A DNA stretch of 64,000 nt from an uncultured Candidatus Saccharibacteria bacterium (GTDB lineage Bacteria > Patescibacteriota > Minisyncoccia > Phycocordibacterales > UBA9973): positions 21,858 to 85,857 of the forward strand of contig CAZWJU010000001.1 of the NCBI GenBank assembly GCA_964634365.1. The letters run 5' to 3'. Position 1 is the first letter of the stretch; every line of letters begins with the position of its first letter. The position numbers and the translations under genes are program-made. Under the pieces are notes generated by a model. The model ran no database searches. It was not told the origin of the DNA and saw only the letters and a program-made list of their open reading frames with translations. Below, in pieces: positions 12,437 through 56,637 of the stretch.

Positions 12437-12463
12437 GATTTTATATATTTGAATATTGTGTTA

Positions 12464-12693
12464 GTATATTTTTGAAATTACCCGGGTGGATATAAAGCAA
12501 ACTGCTTTGCTTTATATCCGAGCATAGCGAGGTGGCCGACACCCGGGCAATGTTTGCGAAGCAGATCAAAAATACGAAGTATATTTTTGAAATTGCCCGG
12601 GTGGATATAAAGCAAACTGCTTTGCTTTATATCCGAGCATAGCGAGGTGGCCGACACCCGGGCAATGTTTGCGAAGCAGATCAAAAATACGAA
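12464..12693 (+). repeat. two tandem 115-bp repeats, each a tRNA-Leu acceptor-like mini-element (5' GCCCGGGTGG ... 3' ACCCGGGCA) with an internal perfect 12-bp hairpin
   Basis: Unit gtatatttttgaaatt-GCCCGGGTGG-ATATAAAGCAAA-CTGC-TTTGCTTTATAT-CCGAGCATAGCGAGGTGGCCGACACCCGGGCA-atgtttgcgaagcagatcaaaaatacgaa repeated at 12464-12578 and 12579-12693. A third unit starts at 12694 and runs into a tRNA-Leu 5' fragment. Confidence 0.8.
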
Positions 12694-12709
12694 GTATATT
12701 TTTGAAATT

Positions 12710-12760
12710 GCCCGGGTGGCGGAATGGTAGACCTGCCTGCCGGCAGGCAGGCGCAAGGGA
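12710..12760 (+). other. tRNA-Leu 5' fragment (acceptor, D-arm and anticodon-stem 5' strand) interrupted by a 19-nt perfect palindrome
   Basis: GCCCGGGTGGCGGAATGGTAGAC-[CTGCCTGCCGGCAGGCAGG]-CGCAAGGGA matches positions 1-31 of the intact tRNA-Leu at 13006, apart from the palindromic insert. It diverges exactly at the anticodon-loop boundary. Confidence 0.7.
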
Positions 12761-12767
12761 TATAAAT

Positions 12768-13001
12768 ATGTATTATGTATATGCTCTAAAAAGTTTAAAT
12801 AGAAATTATATATATGTTGGCTTAACAAATAATCTTGATCGTAGATTTAATCAACATAATTCTGGATAGGAAAAGACCACGAGAAGCTACGCACCTTTTG
12901 TTTTGCTTTATAGTGAATATCACCAAACAAGAGCAAGTGCTAGAATAAGAGAGAAGTATTTGAAATCTGGTTCCGGAAAAGAATTTTTGAAATCGATATA
13001 A
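12768..13001 (+). pseudogene. GIY-YIG nuclease family gene (YhbQ/UPF0213-like, about 77 codons) with an in-frame TAG at 12867-12869
   Basis: MYYVYALKSLNRNYIYVGLTNNLDRRFNQHNSG-[TAG]-EKTTRSYAPFVLLYSEYHQTRASARIREKYLKSGSGKEFLKSI is one continuous frame, homologous end-to-end to the intact paralog at 28898-29140. TAG is a normal stop elsewhere in the window, so a nonsense mutation is the likely explanation. Confidence 0.6.
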
Positions 13002-13005
13002 ATAT

Positions 13006-13089
13006 GCCCGGGTGGCGGAATGGTAGACGCAAGGGACTCAAAATCCCTCGATGGCAACATCATGAGAGTTCAAGTCTCTCCCCGGGCAC
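13006..13089 (+). tRNA. tRNA-Leu (anticodon CAA), long variable arm, CCA not encoded
   Basis: GCCCGGGTGGCGGAATGGTAGACGCAAGGGACTCAAAATCCCTCGATGGCAACATCATGAGAGTTCAAGTCTCTCCCCGGGCA. Followed by a long hairpin terminator at 13090-13130. Confidence 0.85.
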
Positions 13090-13333
13090 AAAAACAAAAC
13101 ACTAGCTTATTGCTAGTTTTTTGTTTTTGGTGGAGAGACTTGAAAGCCGGAGCGCTGATTAGAAAATCATGTCGGGAGACAAGGCGCGAGGTGGGCGATC
13201 AGCAGATTTGTTCCGTGAGGCTTCGCGAGTGAGTTGAGAGGCAAAAGACAAGAGAGTTGTGATTGTGTTTATTCAAATAGGGACTACCTTACACTTTGAC
13301 TTATACTGTATTACTGGTATTATAAAGAAAAAA

Positions 13334-28897: not shown

Positions 28898-29140
28898 TTA
28901 GAGATCTATAATCTCTAATTTTTCTTTTTTGCTGAGTCTTTTTATTTCTGCTTCGCGAGCTCTAGCCTTGCTATATGTTTTGTATTTTTCTGAGTATTTT
29001 AAAACAACGGGTCTGCGGATTTTTGTATAATGCGCACCAGACTTAAGGTTGTTGTGTGCGTAGATGCGTTTTTCTAAATCGGTAGTGGATCCTGTATACA
29101 AAGTCTTGTCGGAGCATTCGAGAATATATACAAAATACAT
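28898..29140 (-). CDS. GIY-YIG nuclease family protein (YhbQ/UPF0213-like)
   Basis: 80 aa. MYFVYILECSDKTLYTGSTTDLEKRIYAHN carries the GIY-YIG motifs. An intact paralog of the interrupted gene at 12768. A perfect roughly 25-bp inverted repeat at 28881-28936 separates it from the convergent upstream gene. Confidence 0.75.
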   Translation of the reverse strand: MYFVYILECSDKTLYTGSTTDLEKRIYAHNNLKSGAHYTKIRRPVVLKYSEKYKTYSKARAREAEIKRLSKKEKLEIIDL

Positions 29141-30748: not shown

Positions 30749-31342
30749 ATGAATATAGTTCTTTCAACTAGAAATCCTAGTAAAGCCCTCCAAATAAAAG
30801 AAATATTTTCCAACTCACTTATAAATATCCAAACGCTTGATGAAGTGGGCATAGAAGGCGAGGCGGTCGAAGATGGAGAAACCTTAAAGGAAAATGCGTT
30901 CAAGAAAGCTGTGTACGCCCTCGCTTTCGCACCCAAGTTTTCTTGGGTGATGGCCGAAGATACAGGTATATTTATCGACGCTCTAGATGGAGATCCAGGT
31001 ATCATATCTGCTAGGTGGGCAGGGGAAGGTAAAAGCACCTTAGATATAATGCAGTATTGCCTTCAGAAGATGGAAGGCATTGAAAACCGCACGGCTTATT
31101 TTGAAACTGTTGTAGCTTTGATTTCTCCAGAAGGTAAAGAATATTATTTTTCTGGAAAACTTTACGGTCAGTTACTAAAAGCTCCACGCACAAATCCACA
31201 GCCAAGCATGCCGTACAGTCCACTTTTTGTACCAAATGGACACAAGAAAGTTTGGGCCGAGATGAGCGTAGAAGAAGAGAATCAAATTTCTCATAGAGGC
31301 AAGGCGTTTCGCCAAGCTCTCGAATTTTTGCAAAAGTTTTAA
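30749..31342 (+). CDS. rdgB: non-canonical purine NTP pyrophosphatase (Ham1/RdgB family)
   Basis: 197 aa. N-terminal IVLSTRNPSKALQIKEI. Ham1 fold motifs. Terminator at 31344-31371. Confidence 0.75.
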   Translation: MNIVLSTRNPSKALQIKEIFSNSLINIQTLDEVGIEGEAVEDGETLKENAFKKAVYALAFAPKFSWVMAEDTGIFIDALDGDPGIISARWAGEGKSTLDIMQYCLQKMEGIENRTAYFETVVALISPEGKEYYFSGKLYGQLLKAPRTNPQPSMPYSPLFVPNGHKKVWAEMSVEEENQISHRGKAFRQALEFLQKF

Positions 31343-31407
31343 ACAAAAACCTCCCAAGCGGGAGGTTTTTTAAATTTAAATTTTATTTTTCTGTAATCAC
31401 AATAAGT

Positions 31408-31607
31408 GCTGCGGGACCTGGACTCGGTCACGAGTTACTAAGTCTGCTCGTATGAGTACATACTGCGCGGACTAAGTACTCGCGACCCCGACTCGGCGAC
31501 AAGCACTCGCTCCGCTCGTCTTGTATACCGCCTCCGTCTTTCTCGTCCAATTCCGGCGAGCAATCGAGCATAATTTTTTATAAAGAAATTTATAAAAAAT
31601 TTCGCTT
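31408..31607. repeat. copy C of the miniature element family, with an 19-nt copy of a tRNA-Gln-type 3' end (gctgcgggacctggactcg) at its outer border
   Basis: Hairpin GGTCACGAGTTACTAAGTC...GACTAAGTACTCGCGACC, then the conserved core CCGACTCGGCGACAAGCACTCGCTCCGCTCGTCTTGTATACCGCCTCCGTCTTTC (near-identical to 6.2 kb). It abuts the tRNA-Gln 3'-half fragment. Confidence 0.6.
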
Positions 31608-31609
31608 GC

Positions 31610-31660
31610 TGCCAGACCTGGACTCGAACCAAGATAACCTCCTCCAGAGTTTCACCTATT
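31610..31660 (-). other. tRNA-Gln-like 3' half (anticodon loop to 3' end; acceptor TCTGGCA)
   Basis: Reverse complement CTCTGGAGGAGGTTATCTTGGTTCGAGTCCAGGTCTGGCA. Identical to the 3' half of the intact tRNA-Gln except for the acceptor strand. Confidence 0.6.
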
Positions 31661-31679
31661 ACTGATTTTCTATTCAAAG

Positions 31680-31750
31680 CTGGGAGACCTGGACTCGAAC
31701 CAAGATAACCTCCTCCAGAGGGAGGTGTCCTACCATTAGACGATCTCCCA
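31680..31750 (-). tRNA. tRNA-Gln (anticodon CTG), CCA not encoded
   Basis: Reverse complement TGGGAGATCGTCTAATGGTAGGACACCTCCCTCTGGAGGAGGTTATCTTGGTTCGAGTCCAGGTCTCCCAG. Flanked by 11-nt inverted repeats TATTCAAAGC/GCTTTGAATA. Confidence 0.8.
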
Positions 31751-31819
31751 GCTTTGAATATAAAATAACAGTAATTTCCTACGGAACCGGATGAAAATGA
31801 AAACTGATTCATTTTCATT

Positions 31820-31841
31820 CCTACCATTAGACGATCTGGCA
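31820..31841 (-). other. tRNA-Gln-like 5' fragment (acceptor TGCCAGA + D-arm), complementary partner of the 3' half at 31610-31660
   Basis: Reverse complement TGCCAGATCGTCTAATGGTAGG. Its acceptor strand pairs perfectly with TCTGGCA of the downstream 3' half. Confidence 0.55.
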
Positions 31842-31926
31842 ATATTCTTAACACGTTCACAATACTATATTGGAGCTTTATTTTCAACGATTTTGAAAAT
31901 ACTCAAATAGCATCTATACTTGATGT

Positions 31927-32553
31927 GTGGAAAATAAAAATACAGAAACAAACGTTCGTTTAGTCTTAGCACAAATAGGTGTGATTTTTGTTTTACCTGT
32001 GCTCTTGCTTTATTTTGGATTGGTTCCAGAATCTTGGAGAATAGTCGTGCTTTTTATATCCTCGCTTTTTATTTATGGAATTATAAAATATGAACGCTGG
32101 GAACAAAAAGATTTTGGATACAGAATAGACAATTTTCGCCATGCACTTTTGCCTTATACAGCGTTTACTTTAGTTGGGGTTACATTGATTATTTGGTTTG
32201 CAGATCAAAACGGTATGACTCCTGTAGAAGGTTGGTGGACTAACCCACATTTTTTGTATTTATTTTTAATAGTCTCTTTTTTACAAGAGTTTGCCTTTAG
32301 AGGATTCTTGATTCCACTGCTTAAAAAAGTTTTTAAAGATAGGTTAGGTATAGTTTTGATCAACGCTCTACTTTTTACACTTATTCATATTCTTTATCCG
32401 GTCCCGACCATCATGTTGCCTCTAGCTTTTATTGGAGGCTTGGGTTTTGCGACTTTATACATGATCTATCCAAATTTGATTTTGATCAGTCTTGCGCATG
32501 CAGTTTTAAATTTTGTCGCTGTACTTTTTGGTTTTTTCGTAATAATCTCATAA
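31927..32553 (+). CDS. CPBP-family intramembrane metalloprotease (CAAX protease / Abi-like)
   Basis: 208 aa, multi-TM. EExxFRG motif (QEFAFRGFL) and conserved His (FTLIHI). Confidence 0.7.
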   Translation: MENKNTETNVRLVLAQIGVIFVLPVLLLYFGLVPESWRIVVLFISSLFIYGIIKYERWEQKDFGYRIDNFRHALLPYTAFTLVGVTLIIWFADQNGMTPVEGWWTNPHFLYLFLIVSFLQEFAFRGFLIPLLKKVFKDRLGIVLINALLFTLIHILYPVPTIMLPLAFIGGLGFATLYMIYPNLILISLAHAVLNFVAVLFGFFVIIS

Positions 32554-33243: not shown

Positions 33244-35769
33244 ATGTTTTTTCGTCGTAGAGCCGGGACGAGTCATATTAAAAATACATGGATAGAAGAT
33301 ATTACGATTTCTGGTAAATCTAAGGTTCTTTCTCTGCGTCCAACATATTTTGTAATACGAATTGATAAACAAAAGATACGCGAACTTTTCAGTAAAGATA
33401 AATATTTTATAGGTTACGGCTTGGTTGTTTTGATTGTACTAGCAGTTTCATCTCTCTCTAATCCTACAAAAGCCGATGTTGTAAATTTCTATCCGACTAG
33501 CTGTCTTGGTGGATGGGAAAATCCTGAAAATGCAACCGGCGCTCCTAGTTTAGATAAAGACGAAAATTTAGAATCTTTCAATGAAGAAAATTCAGCTCGC
33601 ATGCGTGGCACTTCTGATATCTTTTGTGGAGGATTTGAAGGTGAGATACCTCCAGAGGCAGTTGCAAATTCTTTTTCTTTGAGTTTTAGAATATCTGTTG
33701 ACGATGGGTCTGTTGAACATAAAAAAACTGAAGTTCTTGTTGTGCCAGAAACAGAAGAGGTGCGAGTTGGCACTGATAATATAGAGCTCATAGAAATAGA
33801 AAGCTCAGATACAGAAAACCAATCTATTGATCCGACGGAAAACCAAGAAGTGTCTATTGAGCAAGATTCAACAAACACAGCAGAAACAGAGGAAGTTTCA
33901 ATACCAGAGTCAGAGATACCTACAGAAGATGTTCAAGTTGAAGCCCCAGCGCAAGAATCTCCAGAGCCAGAAAATTCACCAGAGTCAACTCCTGATACAA
34001 CAGAGTCTTCCGGTGAGTCTGCATTTTTGAGATTTTTTACAAGGAGAGTTCATGCTGAGGGCGAGGTTGTAACAGATTTAGAAGTTGCTGAAGATATTGT
34101 GTCACCGCAAGTTGAAGAAGCACCAGCTCAAGACACTATTTCAATCGAGGAGTCTGTTGTAGACGAACAATCTGCTGTTGAAAATCAAACTTCAGAACAA
34201 ATAGACACTGGACTAGAAGAGGTAATAAATATAGATAGATCTTCATCTGAAAATGATGAAATCGATTCGAGTGTCTCTGAAGATGGTAACACAGGAGATT
34301 TGGCAGAAGTTGTACCAAATGACGCAATACTTAAAATTATTTACACACTAGACGGAGAAAAATGGGTTTCACTCGGTTACATATCCATGAGCTCTTGGAA
34401 AGATTTGAAATTTAGTATTCCCTTAACAGATTGGTCTAGTGTGTCTAGTTTTCAAATAAAACTAGAACAGATTTCTAGTTACGACGAGAGACCTGTTGTT
34501 TTCTTGGATTCAATTATTCTTTCAGCTGAGTACGACGGACTAGGAGAAGATCCTATCAGACAACCAGACTTTGGAACAGATGTAATTTTGTATGATAAAA
34601 CAGTCGATGACATAAGAGTTATAAAAATACTACGCAACGATATACCAATGATTTGGTATACAAAAATTCCTCCACCAGTCGATTTACCTGAAGGAAAAAT
34701 ATTAGAAGAGCAAGATGGAGTGGAGATTATAATGGCTACAGATGATACTCCTATAGTGGACACAGAAACTCCAACAGATTCTTCTGGCGAGGGAGACGTT
34801 ACGTTGCCTGTGGAAGAGCCTGCGAGCGAGGTATTACCAACAGAAACTATACCTGAAAATCAAGATACGAATTCAACAGAAGAAGGTGCAGAAATAATAT
34901 CTTTTGTTAGAAAAATTAAAAATATTTTTGGTGTATTACAAGTTTATGCCGAAGGTGAAGAAGGCGGAGCTTCCGATGGAGGTTCTTCTGATAGTGGCGG
35001 AGGAGATAGTTCTTCTCAAGGAGGAGATTCATCTAGTACAACAAGCGAGAATGGTTCAGATTCAAGTAGTTCAGAATCTTCTTCTAGTGAATCAAATTCT
35101 TCGTCTGGTGCAGAAGAGAGTGTTAGTTCTATTGATCCTACGGATACAAATAATTCTGAAAATTCTGTTACGGAAGATTCTTTGGTTGAAGAAAACAATT
35201 CTGTTGTATCAGAATCTGATATTACAACAGATAATCAAGTAAGTGATTCAATAAACAAGGTTTTAGATGATATAAATATTGGTGAGGGTGGTAATATTAT
35301 TATTGATACTATTAACAAATACGATAACAGTGATATTAAGATTACAGAAGATCTTTTGTTGAGTACAACAGAAGAAATTATTCCTGGTTTAACACCTATT
35401 TTATATACAGAAGAGCAGATTATGGAAGAGAGGGCGAGTGGTGTGGAGTGGAATTTGGTTGCTGTAGGAGAATCTATTGATACATCAACACCTGTGGATG
35501 TAAGTGGAGGTATAATATTTTGGTTTGGGCCTGGTAAAAGTGTAATTTATCAGTACAACACAGCCTCAGGAGGAATATCTTCTGAAGGTGTCAGTGTAAC
35601 TACTGATTCGGAGGTAAAATATTTAGAGCCAAATGGTGATGTGTCTGAGGTGTCTATAGATATTCAAGATTCTGAAATAATTACACCAAAAGAAGAAATA
35701 GAAAGACAAGAAGCTATATTAGAATCAGAAAATAGTCAGACTAATATTATAGATACTGTTGACATATAA
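33244..35769 (+). CDS. large acidic Ser/Asp/Glu-rich cell-surface protein (N-terminal TM anchor)
   Basis: About 841 aa from the Met at 33244. TM helix GLVVLIVLAVSSL. Long low-complexity acidic tracts (SDGGSSDSGGGDSSSQGGDSSS...). No enzymatic motif. Confidence 0.5.
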   Translation: MFFRRRAGTSHIKNTWIEDITISGKSKVLSLRPTYFVIRIDKQKIRELFSKDKYFIGYGLVVLIVLAVSSLSNPTKADVVNFYPTSCLGGWENPENATGAPSLDKDENLESFNEENSARMRGTSDIFCGGFEGEIPPEAVANSFSLSFRISVDDGSVEHKKTEVLVVPETEEVRVGTDNIELIEIESSDTENQSIDPTENQEVSIEQDSTNTAETEEVSIPESEIPTEDVQVEAPAQESPEPENSPESTPDTTESSGESAFLRFFTRRVHAEGEVVTDLEVAEDIVSPQVEEAPAQDTISIEESVVDEQSAVENQTSEQIDTGLEEVINIDRSSSENDEIDSSVSEDGNTGDLAEVVPNDAILKIIYTLDGEKWVSLGYISMSSWKDLKFSIPLTDWSSVSSFQIKLEQISSYDERPVVFLDSIILSAEYDGLGEDPIRQPDFGTDVILYDKTVDDIRVIKILRNDIPMIWYTKIPPPVDLPEGKILEEQDGVEIIMATDDTPIVDTETPTDSSGEGDVTLPVEEPASEVLPTETIPENQDTNSTEEGAEIISFVRKIKNIFGVLQVYAEGEEGGASDGGSSDSGGGDSSSQGGDSSSTTSENGSDSSSSESSSSESNSSSGAEESVSSIDPTDTNNSENSVTEDSLVEENNSVVSESDITTDNQVSDSINKVLDDINIGEGGNIIIDTINKYDNSDIKITEDLLLSTTEEIIPGLTPILYTEEQIMEERASGVEWNLVAVGESIDTSTPVDVSGGIIFWFGPGKSVIYQYNTASGGISSEGVSVTTDSEVKYLEPNGDVSEVSIDIQDSEIITPKEEIERQEAILESENSQTNIIDTVDI

Positions 35770-38700
35770 CACACAAACAATGTATTTTTTGAAACCGAAA
35801 AGAAAAATAAAATCATTATTTAAGATATTTAATTTTAAAAAAATATTGGTTTTTATTTTTACAATAATGTTTTTATCCAGTGGTCTTACAGACTTGGTTT
35901 TGATGCGTGTGCTAGAAAAGAGATCAGACGATCCTGTTATGAAAAGTGCTGAAGCTGCTACCTATCAATTTTTCCCTACAGATGTAACAGTTGAAACTGG
36001 TACAGAGCAAACAGTTACTTCTCAGACCGCTGCTGCGGCTGAAGGTACAAACTTGGGTTCGCACACAGCGTTGCTAGGAAACGATGCTTTTCATTGGGCT
36101 GTTGCCTCGACTACTTCGGGTGTGTCTATGATCACAACTGTCGGTGGGGTAAACCTAAACGGTGCGAATAAGCTCGACATAGGTACGGAAATAGACTTAG
36201 ATGCAACTATTCCAGTTATAAGTTTTCAGATTTGTGACTGGAGAGATTCGACTAGTGTGAACAATGCCGCAGACGCAAACTGTACAACAGGTGGATGGAG
36301 GACTATCAATACAAAGAGCTTGACCAATACCGATGTGACTATTACTGGTACATCTACACTTCAGCTACGTTGGCAGATATACAACGGATATTTTTATAAT
36401 GGTTCAACGAATGGAGGAACACTGATTGACACACCGCTTGCAAACTTCGTTAGTGATTCAAATGAAATAAAAATTCGCTACTATGCAACAACAAATACCA
36501 CTTCTGTTGTGTCTATAGATTACCTCACAGTTTTTGCATATATCGACTCTATATACTATGCAAATTCATATTCAGATCTAACTGATGGTTCTGGTGGAAC
36601 AGAAAACGGAATAATCCCAAACACCATACCGGTTGTGAACACGGCCACGGCTTTTGCTTCGGCTGGTACAAACGACAACACTCGTTTCAGTGTCGCAGTA
36701 ACAACTCCTGCTAACAACCCAGACTTCTATTTGTCGTATAAAAATGTAAAACAGTATACAGGTATGAACACTATACTTTTAGGAACTTCGGTGAGTTGTA
36801 ACTCCGCTACTACAATACAAGCATATATTTATGACTTTACTGCAACCACCTGGGACACACTAGGCTCTGCTGTGTCGTGTACCACATCGGATGTGGATTA
36901 TCGTTTTGCTCACAACACAGTAGCTGACGCAGGCTTTGTTTTGAATGATTTCATATCAGACGGAGAGATTCGTATAAGATGGACCACAACTGCCGATGTT
37001 TCAAACAACGGTATAAGACTCGATTGGCAATATGTGATGCTCGGCTCTGTAAACTCGGATTCATCTTTGTGTGAAATATCTTTTGGTACAGGAACTGCAA
37101 CAAACTGCACAAACACTCGCGGTATGGATACAAACGGGTCTACAACATCTTTTGATATTGCAGGAGAGGATGAATCTGCAACTATGGGTACAGGAGAAGC
37201 GAATTCATTTTATGTGGCTGATACTGACCAAGACACGACTGTAGAAGAGGGTGTTTCTGCAAACATATCTTTTCCTATAACTGTGCCTACAAACGCTCAA
37301 GTGGTGGGTATAAACTGGGCGAGTCGGGAGACTTCGCGCAGTACAGGAACAACACAGGTTATAAATAGTGTTAGAGATTATTCTGGTTTTACCTCTACAG
37401 CAGGTGGATGGACCGATGTTGGTGCCGCTGTAAACGCCACAACTCAAACATATCAGGATACAGTAACACAAGGAGCGGTACTTTTGTGGGGACAACAAAT
37501 AAACCCAGAAGATTATGTAGATACAGTAAATGGTCGCATGAATATGCGTTTACGTACCTCGACATCTGGTGCAACAACTGACAACTCTACAACTGCTTGG
37601 GACTTTGCGATGATGTCTATACAGTGGATAGAAGATTCGTATAATCCTACAGTGACTTATCAATTTGCTCCAACAGGACAAACTCTTGTTACAGGCACTG
37701 ATACACAAGCAAACAACACTATTGCCGCTGGTGCAAACGGTGCAAACACTGGTTCGTGGAAGGGAACTCTTGCTGACGACAACAGGCATTGGGAGCTTAC
37801 TGGTACAGCTAGTGGTATAGATGTTCAGCTTTATATGAATGGTGTAAAGATAAATGGAGCTAATACAATTATTGTTCAATCTGAAATAGACGTCGACGCA
37901 ACTGCACCAGCACTTTTGATCCAGATATGTGATTGGGTGTCCACGACAAGTGTTGACCATGCAGCTGACGCCCAGTGTACTGGTGGTGGCTGGAGAACAC
38001 TTAACTCGCGTGATGTGACTGTTACTCCGACAACTGCAACCGCATATACATGGAATGTATACGATGGTAAATGGTCAAATGGTTCCAACACTCCGGTTTC
38101 TACTCCACTTTCAAACTTTGTTACAACGGATTCAAACAAGAGAGTTCTTATAAGATACTACTCAACAACAAACGCAACAACAGCAAGTAACTTCGCAATA
38201 GATTATTTGCGTATTTTCCCTGTTATTAATCCTGTGTACGAAGCAGGCGACGCAACTGCTCTTACAAACTCTTTTACAGGAGATTACACAAGCACAAACA
38301 CTGTGACTCAGGGTGCAGCTGACAACACAGACCTTCAGTGTCTTGGTACAACAGGAGGTCCAGACTGCTATTTGTCATTTTTTAATGTAAAAACATACCC
38401 GAGCATGAACACTATACTTGCACGATCGGAGTTTGCTTGTTCGGTTGGGGGTACTGCGCCTGAAGTCAAGATGGCATTTTACAATTTCACGACAGCAGGA
38501 TGGACAGATATCATAAATGAAATCGCTTCGTGTAGCACCACTGACACTGTTCGCATAGGAGCGGTGAATAATATTACAATAGGTGATTATGTACACAATG
38601 GTGAAGTAAGACTTAGATACTATCGTTCAAGTGGAACTGATACTGGTGCAATACAAATAGACTATGCATATATTATGGCTGGTACTACGAACTCTGATTC

Positions 38701-39796
38701 TGGGGCGACAAATTGCTTCATATCTTTTGGTACACTTTCTGCAAACGATTGTACTGCAGCAAGGACTATAAACATGAACGGTACGACAAACAATGGTACT
38801 ACTTGGCAGATCCTCGCTGAAGATGAAGATACTGATCGTGGTATCGGAGAGGCAAATACTTATTATCCTTTTGATACCGATGCGGATGCTGCGGCAACAG
38901 AAGAAGGTTCAGGATCGCACACCAAATTTTCTTTGAGTGGAGAACCAACGTACGGATCTATTACAGGAATATTTTTTTCATCTCAGCATATGGCTGGTAC
39001 TGGTGGAACCGTGGCTCTCGGTATTGCAGACTATTCGGGATATAACACGGCTGCCGCAACGATCGGAGGTTTTATAGCGCTCGGTGCAACCGCTACGACG
39101 GCTCTTGTATATACCGACAATATTACTGTAGGTACTACTGTTTCTGGTGGTGCTGCCGGATATATGACTAATCCAGATGATTTATTGAATACATCTGGCA
39201 ACGAAGCGTGGTTTCGTCTACGTACCTCGACTGATGGTAGCTCAGCAACAAACGCGGTTAGACAATGGGATTTTGCCATGATTGGGCTTCAGTGGGTAGA
39301 AACAGAAGATAGAACAATTTCGTTTGATATTTCTGATACAACTATAGGGTTCGGTCCTCTTACTACTTCGAATGCTCGTTATGCTACTGGAGATGCAGCT
39401 GGCAGCGACACGGAAGTAGAGGCGCATACAATATCAGCATCTTCTAGTGCAGCGGGCGGATATACAATAACTGTGCAAGGTAACACACTTACAAGTGGTG
39501 CGAACACAATAGATGCGATCGGTGGAACAAACACGGCTTCTAGTGCGGGGACAGAGCAGTTTGGAATAAAGGCATCTGTGTCAGGTGTCTCAAATTACCA
39601 TACCGTTGATTCTACATACTCAGGATCAGGATATGGATACGATGGAACTTCAAGTGCTTCAACTTTCGCAACACAATCCGAAGGCGACGGTTTTACTTCA
39701 ACATATTCTGTTAGTTATATTGCGAACATGTCTACAGGTACAGAGACTGGGGCATACTCTACAGATTTAAACTACATATTAACTGGTAATTTCTAG
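35759..39796 (+). CDS. giant (1345 aa) Thr/Gly/Asn-rich surface protein: N-terminal TM/signal, two tandem roughly 490-aa homologous modules, C-terminal WxL-like module
   Basis: Module 1 (about nt 36149-37630) and module 2 (about 37837-39310) align throughout (ICDW...CTTGGWRT, RYY.TTN, RLRTSTSG...WDFAM..QW). The last roughly 165 aa are homologous to the C-terminal halves of the ORFs at 39853 and 41036, and the protein ends ...LNYILTGNF. Confidence 0.6.
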   Translation: MTYNTQTMYFLKPKRKIKSLFKIFNFKKILVFIFTIMFLSSGLTDLVLMRVLEKRSDDPVMKSAEAATYQFFPTDVTVETGTEQTVTSQTAAAAEGTNLGSHTALLGNDAFHWAVASTTSGVSMITTVGGVNLNGANKLDIGTEIDLDATIPVISFQICDWRDSTSVNNAADANCTTGGWRTINTKSLTNTDVTITGTSTLQLRWQIYNGYFYNGSTNGGTLIDTPLANFVSDSNEIKIRYYATTNTTSVVSIDYLTVFAYIDSIYYANSYSDLTDGSGGTENGIIPNTIPVVNTATAFASAGTNDNTRFSVAVTTPANNPDFYLSYKNVKQYTGMNTILLGTSVSCNSATTIQAYIYDFTATTWDTLGSAVSCTTSDVDYRFAHNTVADAGFVLNDFISDGEIRIRWTTTADVSNNGIRLDWQYVMLGSVNSDSSLCEISFGTGTATNCTNTRGMDTNGSTTSFDIAGEDESATMGTGEANSFYVADTDQDTTVEEGVSANISFPITVPTNAQVVGINWASRETSRSTGTTQVINSVRDYSGFTSTAGGWTDVGAAVNATTQTYQDTVTQGAVLLWGQQINPEDYVDTVNGRMNMRLRTSTSGATTDNSTTAWDFAMMSIQWIEDSYNPTVTYQFAPTGQTLVTGTDTQANNTIAAGANGANTGSWKGTLADDNRHWELTGTASGIDVQLYMNGVKINGANTIIVQSEIDVDATAPALLIQICDWVSTTSVDHAADAQCTGGGWRTLNSRDVTVTPTTATAYTWNVYDGKWSNGSNTPVSTPLSNFVTTDSNKRVLIRYYSTTNATTASNFAIDYLRIFPVINPVYEAGDATALTNSFTGDYTSTNTVTQGAADNTDLQCLGTTGGPDCYLSFFNVKTYPSMNTILARSEFACSVGGTAPEVKMAFYNFTTAGWTDIINEIASCSTTDTVRIGAVNNITIGDYVHNGEVRLRYYRSSGTDTGAIQIDYAYIMAGTTNSDSGATNCFISFGTLSANDCTAARTINMNGTTNNGTTWQILAEDEDTDRGIGEANTYYPFDTDADAAATEEGSGSHTKFSLSGEPTYGSITGIFFSSQHMAGTGGTVALGIADYSGYNTAAATIGGFIALGATATTALVYTDNITVGTTVSGGAAGYMTNPDDLLNTSGNEAWFRLRTSTDGSSATNAVRQWDFAMIGLQWVETEDRTISFDISDTTIGFGPLTTSNARYATGDAAGSDTEVEAHTISASSSAAGGYTITVQGNTLTSGANTIDAIGGTNTASSAGTEQFGIKASVSGVSNYHTVDSTYSGSGYGYDGTSSASTFATQSEGDGFTSTYSVSYIANMSTGTETGAYSTDLNYILTGNF

Positions 39797-56485: not shown

Positions 56486-56637
56486 TCACGTGCTAGCACG
56501 AGAAGCATATAAAATAATACTTTTTGACGATCAAAAATTTGCACCCCTCTGAGAATCGAACCTTCTTTGGCGCCGCTGTTAAAAGGCTTGGCTTACCCGA
56601 AATATATACACTGTGCCCCTTAAGGTATAATACATCT

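Follow-up and report, generated by a model that had tools for sequence, protein, structure and literature searches.

A free-standing gene for a GIY-YIG homing endonuclease, SegB, is located in a tRNA cluster of phage T4 (PMC2330249), and a mobile-element model has been proposed for disrupted tRNA genes of archaea, as described for the tRNA-Thr of Caldiarchaeum (PMC3293823). For Patescibacteria (CPR), the accessible text of two reports describes GIY-YIG-encoding insertions that are not introns in rRNA genes (PMC11270868) and introns of group I within tRNA genes (PMC13011429). In addition, integrative elements and prophages target tRNA genes. Here, we describe a locus in a 64-kb stretch of chromosomal DNA from a bacterium of the Patescibacteria (CPR), referred to below as the window, in which an intact tRNA-Gln gene lies between the 5' and 3' parts of another tRNA-Gln gene, and we compare it with related loci, some of which carry a GIY-YIG open reading frame (ORF).

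These loci resemble the SegB system in that a GIY-YIG gene occurs among tRNA genes, that related genomes carry empty and occupied alleles, and that the spread we propose involves a double-strand break and its repair, with co-transfer of the nuclease gene and adjacent tRNA sequence. However, SegB is a larger protein, its extra length presumably being a DNA-binding region, and its gene lies between intact tRNA genes, whereas the ORFs found here encode 80-97 aa and the catalytic domain only. Moreover, the elements described here sit inside a tRNA gene, leave fragments of it behind and regenerate or bring a whole tRNA; their cleavage activity is putative, and the copy in the window has lost its ORF. 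With tRNA-targeting integrative elements and prophages, our loci share the disruption of the gene, the import of tRNA sequence, the displaced fragment that appears as a direct repeat, and junctions in the anticodon loop or T loop. Those elements, however, carry the 3' part of the tRNA and measure several kb or more, whereas the elements here are 0.17-0.5 kb long, have no integrase, supply the 5' part or the entire tRNA, and leave both 5' and 3' remnants. As in Caldiarchaeum, a mobile insertion has split a tRNA 5' fragment off from a complete tRNA of the same identity, and populations are heterogeneous at the locus. In contrast, Caldiarchaeum is an archaeon, its 1.8-kb element carries a recombinase, and its introns are removed by a splicing endonuclease, whereas the host here is bacterial and the outer pieces are apparently dead. 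As far as the accessible text of the two CPR reports goes, the insertions in rRNA and tRNA genes occur in the same phylum, lie inside structured-RNA genes and in some cases carry GIY-YIG ORFs, but they interrupt a gene and need to be removed or tolerated, whereas in our case a second, complete gene takes the place of the interrupted one, which is abandoned. No nesting of one tRNA in another is described in that text (PMC11270868, PMC13011429), and our search of the full-text literature returned no account of nested tRNA genes in bacteria, nor of tRNA genes that contain a GIY-YIG gene. Among the nearest known systems, none has both a replacement tRNA and a minimal nuclease located within a tRNA gene of a bacterium.

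RESULTS

An intact tRNA-Gln gene lies between the two parts of another

The locus is a 584-nt spacer between rdgB (30749-31342, plus strand) and a CAAX-protease gene (31927-32553, plus strand); its neighboring ORFs encode an ABC-F protein, RdgB, the CAAX protease and a VTT protein. According to the flanking RdgB and CAAX-protease genes, the closest relatives are assemblies of Candidatus Paceibacterota and Nomurabacteria. All nested-tRNA features of the spacer sit on the minus strand, and we describe them in the direction of that strand. A promoter-like site (TTGAAA-17 nt-TATTGT, 31859-31887), which in relatives precedes an intact copy of the outer tRNA-Gln gene (gene A), is located upstream of the 5' fragment of A (TGCCAGATCGTCTAATGGTAGG, 31820-31841), which comprises the acceptor 5' strand TGCCAGA and the D stem and loop. 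The left end of the inserted cassette is an AT-rich hairpin (31791-31818) that sits within the D-stem 3' strand, between GA and C. It is followed by a 15-nt spacer (31776-31790), at the place occupied by a GIY-YIG ORF in full-length relatives (by comparison with locus L088), and by a 25-nt leader arm (31751-31775), which pairs with a 21-nt trailer arm (31658-31678) in a helix that extends the acceptor stem of the inner gene. This inner gene (gene B, 31679-31750) is an intact tRNA-Gln(CUG) with the acceptor strands TGGGAGA/TCTCCCA, and it scored 58.8 bits against the Rfam tRNA model. Beyond the trailer, the 8-nt right cassette end (AGGTGAAA, 31650-31657) runs up to an alignment breakpoint, where the 3' fragment of A begins (CTCTGGAGG...TCTGGCAGC, 31608-31649; from the first anticodon-loop base to the discriminator plus C). 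The remainder of the spacer contains an AT-rich palindromic hairpin after A (31567-31607; also found in L016 and L018), which is the first part of what we term the T-loop element; copy C of that element (31427-31560), in which an arm antisense to the 3' part of the tRNA is combined with two conserved hairpins and a GTGAC end; the 3' remnant of a third tRNA-Gln, allele C, which runs from T-loop C56 to TCCCGCA (31407-31426); and a bidirectional terminator hairpin (31345-31371) that closes the locus and is kept in L004, L016 and L157.

The original prediction, made from this DNA alone, had described an intact tRNA-Gln between the 5' and 3' parts of another, and all elements of that arrangement were found in the sequence. 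Consistently, the acceptor strands of the two parts of A, TGCCAGA (5') and TCTGGCA (3'), pair without a mismatch, the anticipated loss of about 8 nt from the outer gene amounts to 7-8 nt (ACACCTCC), and the third tRNA-Gln 3' end is present at 31426-31407. Two features had been recognized correctly and delimited imprecisely: the outer 3' half, placed at 31660-31610, spans 31649-31608, so that its start was off by about 11 nt, and the inverted repeats around B, given as 11 nt, are 23-nt arms with 96% complementarity (including the acceptor stem), accompanied by a further ATTACTG/CAGTAAT. ARAGORN, one of the tRNA finders proposed as a check, and Rfam both detected B, and neither detected a second, outer tRNA. 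The ORF drawn across the region (31438-31887) had been called spurious, in agreement with our finding that it has no Pfam match and crosses the promoter, a tRNA gene and repeats.

The 5'A-spacer-B junction was reproduced at 100% identity in L003, an independent Logan assembly of the same organism, and the nested locus is therefore not an assembly artifact. The downstream part of the locus is present in L001, a Logan contig of the same organism, and the B-trailer-3'A junction has a homologue in L100, with no independent contig of this organism covering it. Both Logan contigs of the organism stop inside the nested locus.

The cassette replaced 7-8 nt of gene A in a lineage-specific event

We gathered related loci by exact-protein look-ups and one genome-collection scan. 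An uninterrupted A was found at the orthologous site in 13 related assemblies (L004, L016-L023, L025-L027 and L158), indicating that the window shows a lineage-specific event. Over its 72 nt, the A gene of these relatives matches the window halves without a difference once the 8 missing bases are added; more specifically, the 5' fragment shows 100% identity to intact A of the 13 assemblies (positions 1-22), and the 3' fragment is likewise 100% identical to the relatives' intact gene. When the window was aligned with L016 by blastn, both sides matched and the alignment broke exactly at 31649/31819, corresponding to L016 3885/3893, which indicates that 170 nt replaced 7-8 nt of A. One site is therefore represented by an occupied allele (window) and an empty allele (13 assemblies) with a clean breakpoint. 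These comparisons demonstrate insertion with replacement and bear out the earlier proposal that a tRNA-Gln gene had been inserted into another or had replaced its center; a simple tandem pair of tRNA-Gln genes, the scenario that had been set against this proposal, was not found at the orthologous site in any relative.

The cassette is 170 bp long (31650-31819), cuts A between the D arm and the anticodon loop, and consists of the hairpin, spacer, leader, complete tRNA-Gln(CUG) B and trailer, in that order, with no ORF. Since the two halves of A are identical to the intact gene at 64/64 nt, whereas flanking DNA is 79-87% identical between these genomes, the insertion is much younger than the lineage split. 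Searching the window and all collected loci with spacers X and Y returned only the window itself and L003.

The nested unit recurs at a non-syntenic site and belongs to a wider set of loci

A second copy of the nested unit was found in L100, where the inner tRNA is 96%, the leader 92%, and hairpin plus spacer 73% identical to those of the window, and where both junctions are the same. L100 and the window are not syntenic, which demonstrates that the cassette is a transferable unit. The outer halves in L100 are degraded (48% and 81% identity, with the T stem broken), as expected of pseudogene remnants, and this decay speaks against the outer halves having any function.

A metagenome scan with the first 24 nt of B, which represent a tRNA-Gln type common in metagenomes, yielded at least 120 tRNA-Gln loci; among the 120 matches listed, approximately 15 loci have tRNA-Gln fragments around an intact tRNA-Gln. 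The insertion points of whole-tRNA cassettes vary by locus and include the D loop, D arm, anticodon loop and T loop. At loci whose outer and inner acceptor stems are identical, the 5' part alone is duplicated, whereas a whole tRNA is carried at those with differing stems (the window, L111, L088, L049, L087, L032 and L112), presumably because a hybrid acceptor stem would not pair.

These cassettes are marked by a 13-30-bp leader-trailer helix that prolongs the acceptor stem. The median energy of the leader-trailer duplex was -19.8 kcal/mol at loci with fragments versus -7.9 kcal/mol (Mann-Whitney p = 2.7e-5), and the gapless extension of the acceptor stem was bimodal (at least 13 bp in ~20 loci, at most 10 bp in the rest). 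Over the 13 pairs beyond the acceptor stem, 93.6% of positions were paired in 18 helix loci, compared with 36-49% in slid controls, and 11 of the 13 extension pairs change on both sides, although these statistics are partly circular because the 18 loci were selected for having the helix. The data show that the helix recurs with differing sequences while pairing is kept. The helices of the window and L100 are set apart by one double change, from A-U to G-C, and by several G-U intermediates. An origin of the inverted flanks by template switching would likewise give different sequences in each cassette.

Full-length relatives encode a minimal GIY-YIG protein

In L088, L095, L110, L112 and L120, a GIY-YIG ORF (PF01541) of 80-97 aa terminates 6-21 nt upstream of the inner tRNA; a GIY-YIG ORF is also present in L148-L156. 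The encoded proteins consist of the GIY-YIG catalytic domain alone, and among solved structures they come nearest to UPF0213 proteins and the SLX1 nuclease domain. The window cassette has its closest full-length analogue in L088. This locus contains, in order, an outer 5' fragment ending in GGTAG, a GC-rich two-hairpin module, the ORF, a leader, the inner tRNA, a trailer and an outer 3' fragment, the last starting at the same anticodon-loop base as in the window. The L088 protein has 122 homologues at E <= 1e-10, nearly all from CPR. As a guard against bias, five of these homologues were picked by the length of their contigs alone, independently of the tRNA-Gln search, and their six loci inspected; all six (6/6) showed a tRNA 5' fragment, the module, the ORF and a complete tRNA of the same identity, which was tRNA-Gln at four loci, with tRNA-Ser present in two contigs. 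The module motif lies directly after the GGTAG of the tRNA-Gln fragment in 8/8 cases (all DNA examined).

The left hairpin of the window cassette is homologous to the L100 hairpin and lies within 2 nt of the position of the GC-rich module in the GIY-YIG elements. Its position also matches, within 2 nt, that of a perfect 20-nt palindrome (12732-12751) in a tRNA-Leu fragment of the window. This tRNA-Leu locus has the same build, in that a 5' fragment and a GIY-YIG ORF, with an in-frame TAG, are located upstream of a whole tRNA, and L101 has a tRNA-Gly with a 5' fragment and a GIY-YIG ORF just upstream. Tandem units were observed as two ORF units in L153 and as 2 x 115-nt repeats at 12463-12692 of the window. 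The window contains no intact tRNA-linked GIY-YIG gene; an intact one at 28898-29140 does not adjoin a tRNA. The architecture that recurs in Patescibacteria is thus a tRNA fragment, a hairpin module, a ~85-aa GIY-YIG ORF in full-length copies, and a whole tRNA of the same identity, and the comparisons demonstrate that the window cassette is a member of it.

Older layers at the locus predate the cassette

L157, the closest relative by its flanks, carries allele C (TGCGGGA...TCCCGCA), which has 14 differences from A, at the same site. The 3' end of this allele and the third fragment in the window differ by a single T-stem base, and L020 carries an exact C-type 3' end. Copy C of the T-loop element, its AT hairpin and the third fragment occur together in L016-L023 and L027, all of which are free of the cassette. 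Thus, the T-loop element and the third fragment are older than the cassette, contrary to the original prediction, in which a miniature element integrated after the tRNA insertion. The remnants surviving at the locus give an order in which C is the oldest, followed by A with the T-loop element and then by B, so that one site holds three acceptor-stem variants in layers. Successive invasions of tRNA genes are stacked at this locus.

The T-loop element also has a 97% identical core adjoining a tRNA-Tyr, in addition to the orthologues of copy C in L016-L023. Judged by analogy, its layout would suit a folded single-strand attachment-site mimic, as in CTX phage or integron attC. Three other candidates, namely, an IS200/IS605-type guide RNA, an IS110 bridge RNA and the primer-binding site of a retro-element, found no support, given the absence of a transposase and the 20-nt duplication. 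Rfam searches at gathering and permissive thresholds assigned no family to the cassette, the hairpins or the T-loop element, and scans of viral contigs with the T-loop core, the cassette junction and the GIY-YIG protein gave no match.

DISCUSSION

We interpret the cassette as a degenerate member of an apparently undescribed class of tRNA-gene invaders that bring a replacement tRNA, and we place the probability of this reading at roughly 70%. The minus strand of the cassette itself showed no promoter-like site, and B would therefore be transcribed from the promoter of A within a chimeric precursor; the promoter-like site at 31859-31887 is probably the only promoter serving B. The long leader-trailer helix could act as a processing stalk that helps to release B from this precursor. 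The halves of A would be non-functional and B the functional replacement gene, in which case the cell would now depend on the tRNA of the cassette.

With regard to spread, a GIY-YIG nuclease supplied in trans might break both strands of a naive tRNA gene close to its D arm or anticodon stem, and repair of the break might then copy the cassette from a donor allele, with conserved tRNA segments serving as homology arms. This homing-like route is the least certain part of our interpretation. The absence of an ORF from the window cassette and of an intact tRNA-linked GIY-YIG gene from the window weighs against our reading. The window and the non-syntenic L100 share both junctions, as a homing-like preference for one site would predict, but the other whole-tRNA cassettes sit elsewhere, and such varied insertion points speak against homing, as does the lack in the ORFs of a DNA-binding domain of the kind found in known homing endonucleases. 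Furthermore, the regenerated tRNA recreates the presumed target, which classical homing avoids; this argues against simple immunity, and it may explain tandem re-invasion, as in the units of L153 and the repeats at 12463-12692. For CPR rRNA genes, the accessible text of Tsurumaki et al. 2024 (PMC11270868) likewise assesses GIY-YIG insertions as seemingly outside homing.

An explanation that we regard as unlikely is that the cassette is a miniature inverted-repeat element that a transposase or a structure-specific nuclease moves by way of its inverted flanks, with the GIY-YIG gene as cargo or coincidence. Leader and trailer do form arms like terminal inverted repeats, a second cassette family (L032, L049 and L087) has the ends CCTGCCCGCC...GGCAGGCGGGG at different tRNA positions, the palindrome at 12732-12751 in the tRNA-Leu fragment is built of such ends, and cassette junctions show small duplications or deletions (+4, +2, 0, -2 and -8). 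However, the window has an 8-nt loss instead of a target-site duplication, there is a single copy of the cassette in 64 kb, and no transposase adjoins any copy. In addition, insertions are restricted to tRNA genes of the same identity, for which homology-dependent copying or strong selection is a better fit than transposition.

We consider it improbable that the locus consists of remnants of integrase-type integration, with the direct repeats as attL/attR cores that begin at the anticodon loop or T loop and reach the tRNA 3' end, and with the interiors of the elements deleted. The positions of the repeats are suggestive: a direct repeat of 36-42 nt starts from the anticodon loop and 20-nt repeats start exactly from T-loop C56, and these loops are the two classic integrase sublocations in tRNA genes that Williams reportedly defined in 2002. 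Against this explanation, no integrase is present in the neighborhood, only 29 nt lie between the direct repeats, the duplicated 5' fragment is left unexplained, B possesses a matching 5' acceptor strand of its own, and the same small cassette recurs elsewhere (L100).

Even less probable is a local origin, by tandem triplication of tRNA-Gln followed by two deletions and without a mobile element. The copies do have long exact repeats in common, but all relatives have a single gene at the site, the spacers are unlike the local flanks and homologous to L100, and B differs from A by two flipped, and therefore compensated, acceptor-stem base pairs and by nothing else. Finally, it is very unlikely that the outer gene still functions in a bacterium as a split or intron-containing tRNA, with the helix holding its halves until they are joined, since, although the minimum-free-energy fold pairs the outer acceptor strands together with the long helix and L032 and L087 show a precise anticodon-loop insertion with a complete outer tRNA sequence, the window lacks the anticodon-stem 5' strand, the tRNA finders report B alone, no group I/II intron matched in Rfam (E up to 10), the outer halves decay in the older copy L100, and bacteria are not known to possess a bulge-helix-bulge splicing endonuclease. 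A variant in which removal of the hairpin would complete the outer tRNA (GGTAGGA-hairpin-C, with the GTTCC strand) was also rejected, as it gives 4 pairs only, is not supported by ARAGORN or Rfam, and is at odds with the decay in L100.

Extending our reading of the cassette as a tRNA-gene invader, we tentatively propose, at a little below even odds, that Patescibacteria harbor widespread and undescribed selfish tRNA-replacement elements. Such elements would comprise a minimal GIY-YIG gene, driven by the captured promoter of the tRNA, and a partial or complete tRNA gene, and would destroy the resident gene and make the host dependent, with rapid turnover of alleles as a result; the window cassette would be a non-autonomous form, and the T-loop elements would be an ORF-less partner class acting on the 3' side. 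If this is true, the tRNA genes of these minimal genomes, far from being static housekeeping loci, are active battlegrounds on which small elements overwrite each other and leave datable layers, and the dependence of the host on an element-borne tRNA resembles a gene drive or an addiction module. The idea that mobile elements break up tRNA genes, developed for archaea, would also gain a counterpart in bacteria, and the findings would point to a minimal GIY-YIG nuclease whose possible target is a structure in tRNA genes. In practical terms, orphan tRNA fragments in CPR genomes would be explained, assembly breaks at tRNA loci might be, and ORF callers should be expected to draw spurious proteins across such loci. 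Apart from the tRNA loci, a LOOT RNA was found in the window.

Insertions within tRNA genes

At the metagenomic tRNA-Gln locus L112 (about 750-1290), we found that the outer tRNA-Gln holds three separate insertions, namely, (i) a hairpin module after tRNA position 7; (ii) a GIY-YIG-tRNA cassette that interrupts the D loop; and (iii) a hairpin of 26 nt at position 37/38, the canonical intron site. Two GIY-YIG units are arranged in tandem on the contig L153 (1164-1832), and a tRNA 5' fragment lies ahead of each. Both there and on L154, another contig of a GIY-YIG homologue, the GIY-YIG ORF extends at its end into the tRNA and shares the first 14-15 nt with it.

Within the window, the tRNA-Leu locus (12463-13089, plus strand) consists of four parts. 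It begins with a 115-nt sequence repeated in tandem (two copies, 99% identical), both copies containing the first 10 nt of tRNA-Leu, followed by a tRNA-Leu 5' fragment in which the 3' strand of the D stem is interrupted by a perfect 20-nt palindrome (CCTGCCTGCCGGCAGGCAGG, 12732-12751). A GIY-YIG ORF carrying an in-frame TAG (12768-13001) and an intact tRNA-Leu (13006-13089) complete the locus. The palindrome is equal to both ends, joined, of the second cassette family (L032/L049/L087), whose members are inserted at differing tRNA positions.

An intact GIY-YIG ORF of 80 aa is also present in the window (28898-29140, minus strand), flanked by beta-lactamase-like and ABC-F genes; no tRNA adjoins it, and its position is kept in relatives. 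On the non-syntenic contig L100, an ORF 67% identical to it follows the nested tRNA-Gln at a distance of ~350 nt.

Allelic variation at the tRNA-Gln site

The orthologous tRNA-Gln site is occupied by strongly divergent alleles, as revealed by comparing L157 (3876-3947), a relative with an intact C-type gene, with the window and the related assemblies L004 and L158, in which allele A is uninterrupted. Allele C departs from allele A at 14 of 72 positions, the entire anticodon stem among them, and the flanks around them are 80-87% identical. The presence of an adjoining gene of the exonuclease/endonuclease/phosphatase family (Exo_endo_phos) also varies among these loci. As the pattern of tRNA-Gln allele and Exo_endo_phos gene is out of step with overall similarity, these data suggest allele swapping limited to the tRNA-Gln gene itself.

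Elements downstream of tRNA genes

An ORF-less family, the T-loop elements, is located immediately 3' of tRNA-Tyr, tRNA-Trp, and tRNA-Gln (6179-6356, minus strand; 8844-8993, plus strand; 31407-31607, minus strand), with further members in L016-L023, L111, and L139. Each element opens with a hairpin and continues with an arm that runs antisense to the T loop, the T stem, and the 3' acceptor strand of the tRNA; a pair of conserved hairpins, a (T)YGTGAC end, and a 20-nt repeat of the 3' end of the tRNA, the first base of which is exactly C56, follow in that order. The cores of the Tyr and Gln elements share 97% identity across 63 nt, and the antisense arm varies with tRNA identity. This arrangement is reminiscent of a folded mimic of a single-strand attachment site, a candidate reading of these elements.

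Downstream of tRNA-Leu (13132-13260, plus strand; GGAGAGACTTGAA) and tRNA-Glu (56486-56620, plus strand; GAATCGAACC), the T arm of the respective tRNA recurs in inverted orientation, in both cases followed by GC-rich sequence. No direct tRNA 3' copy was detectable at either site, and the two regions may represent degraded T-loop-type elements.

Other features of the window

A LOOT RNA (RF03000; 61636-61761, plus strand; 92.7 bits) is consistent with the host assignment, as this RNA family is typical of candidate phyla. Diverged direct repeats of 70-77% identity (36719-36778/38360-38419 and 39852-40034/41035-41217) were located within and shortly after a 1345-aa ORF (35759-39796) lacking any Pfam match; these may be internal protein repeats.
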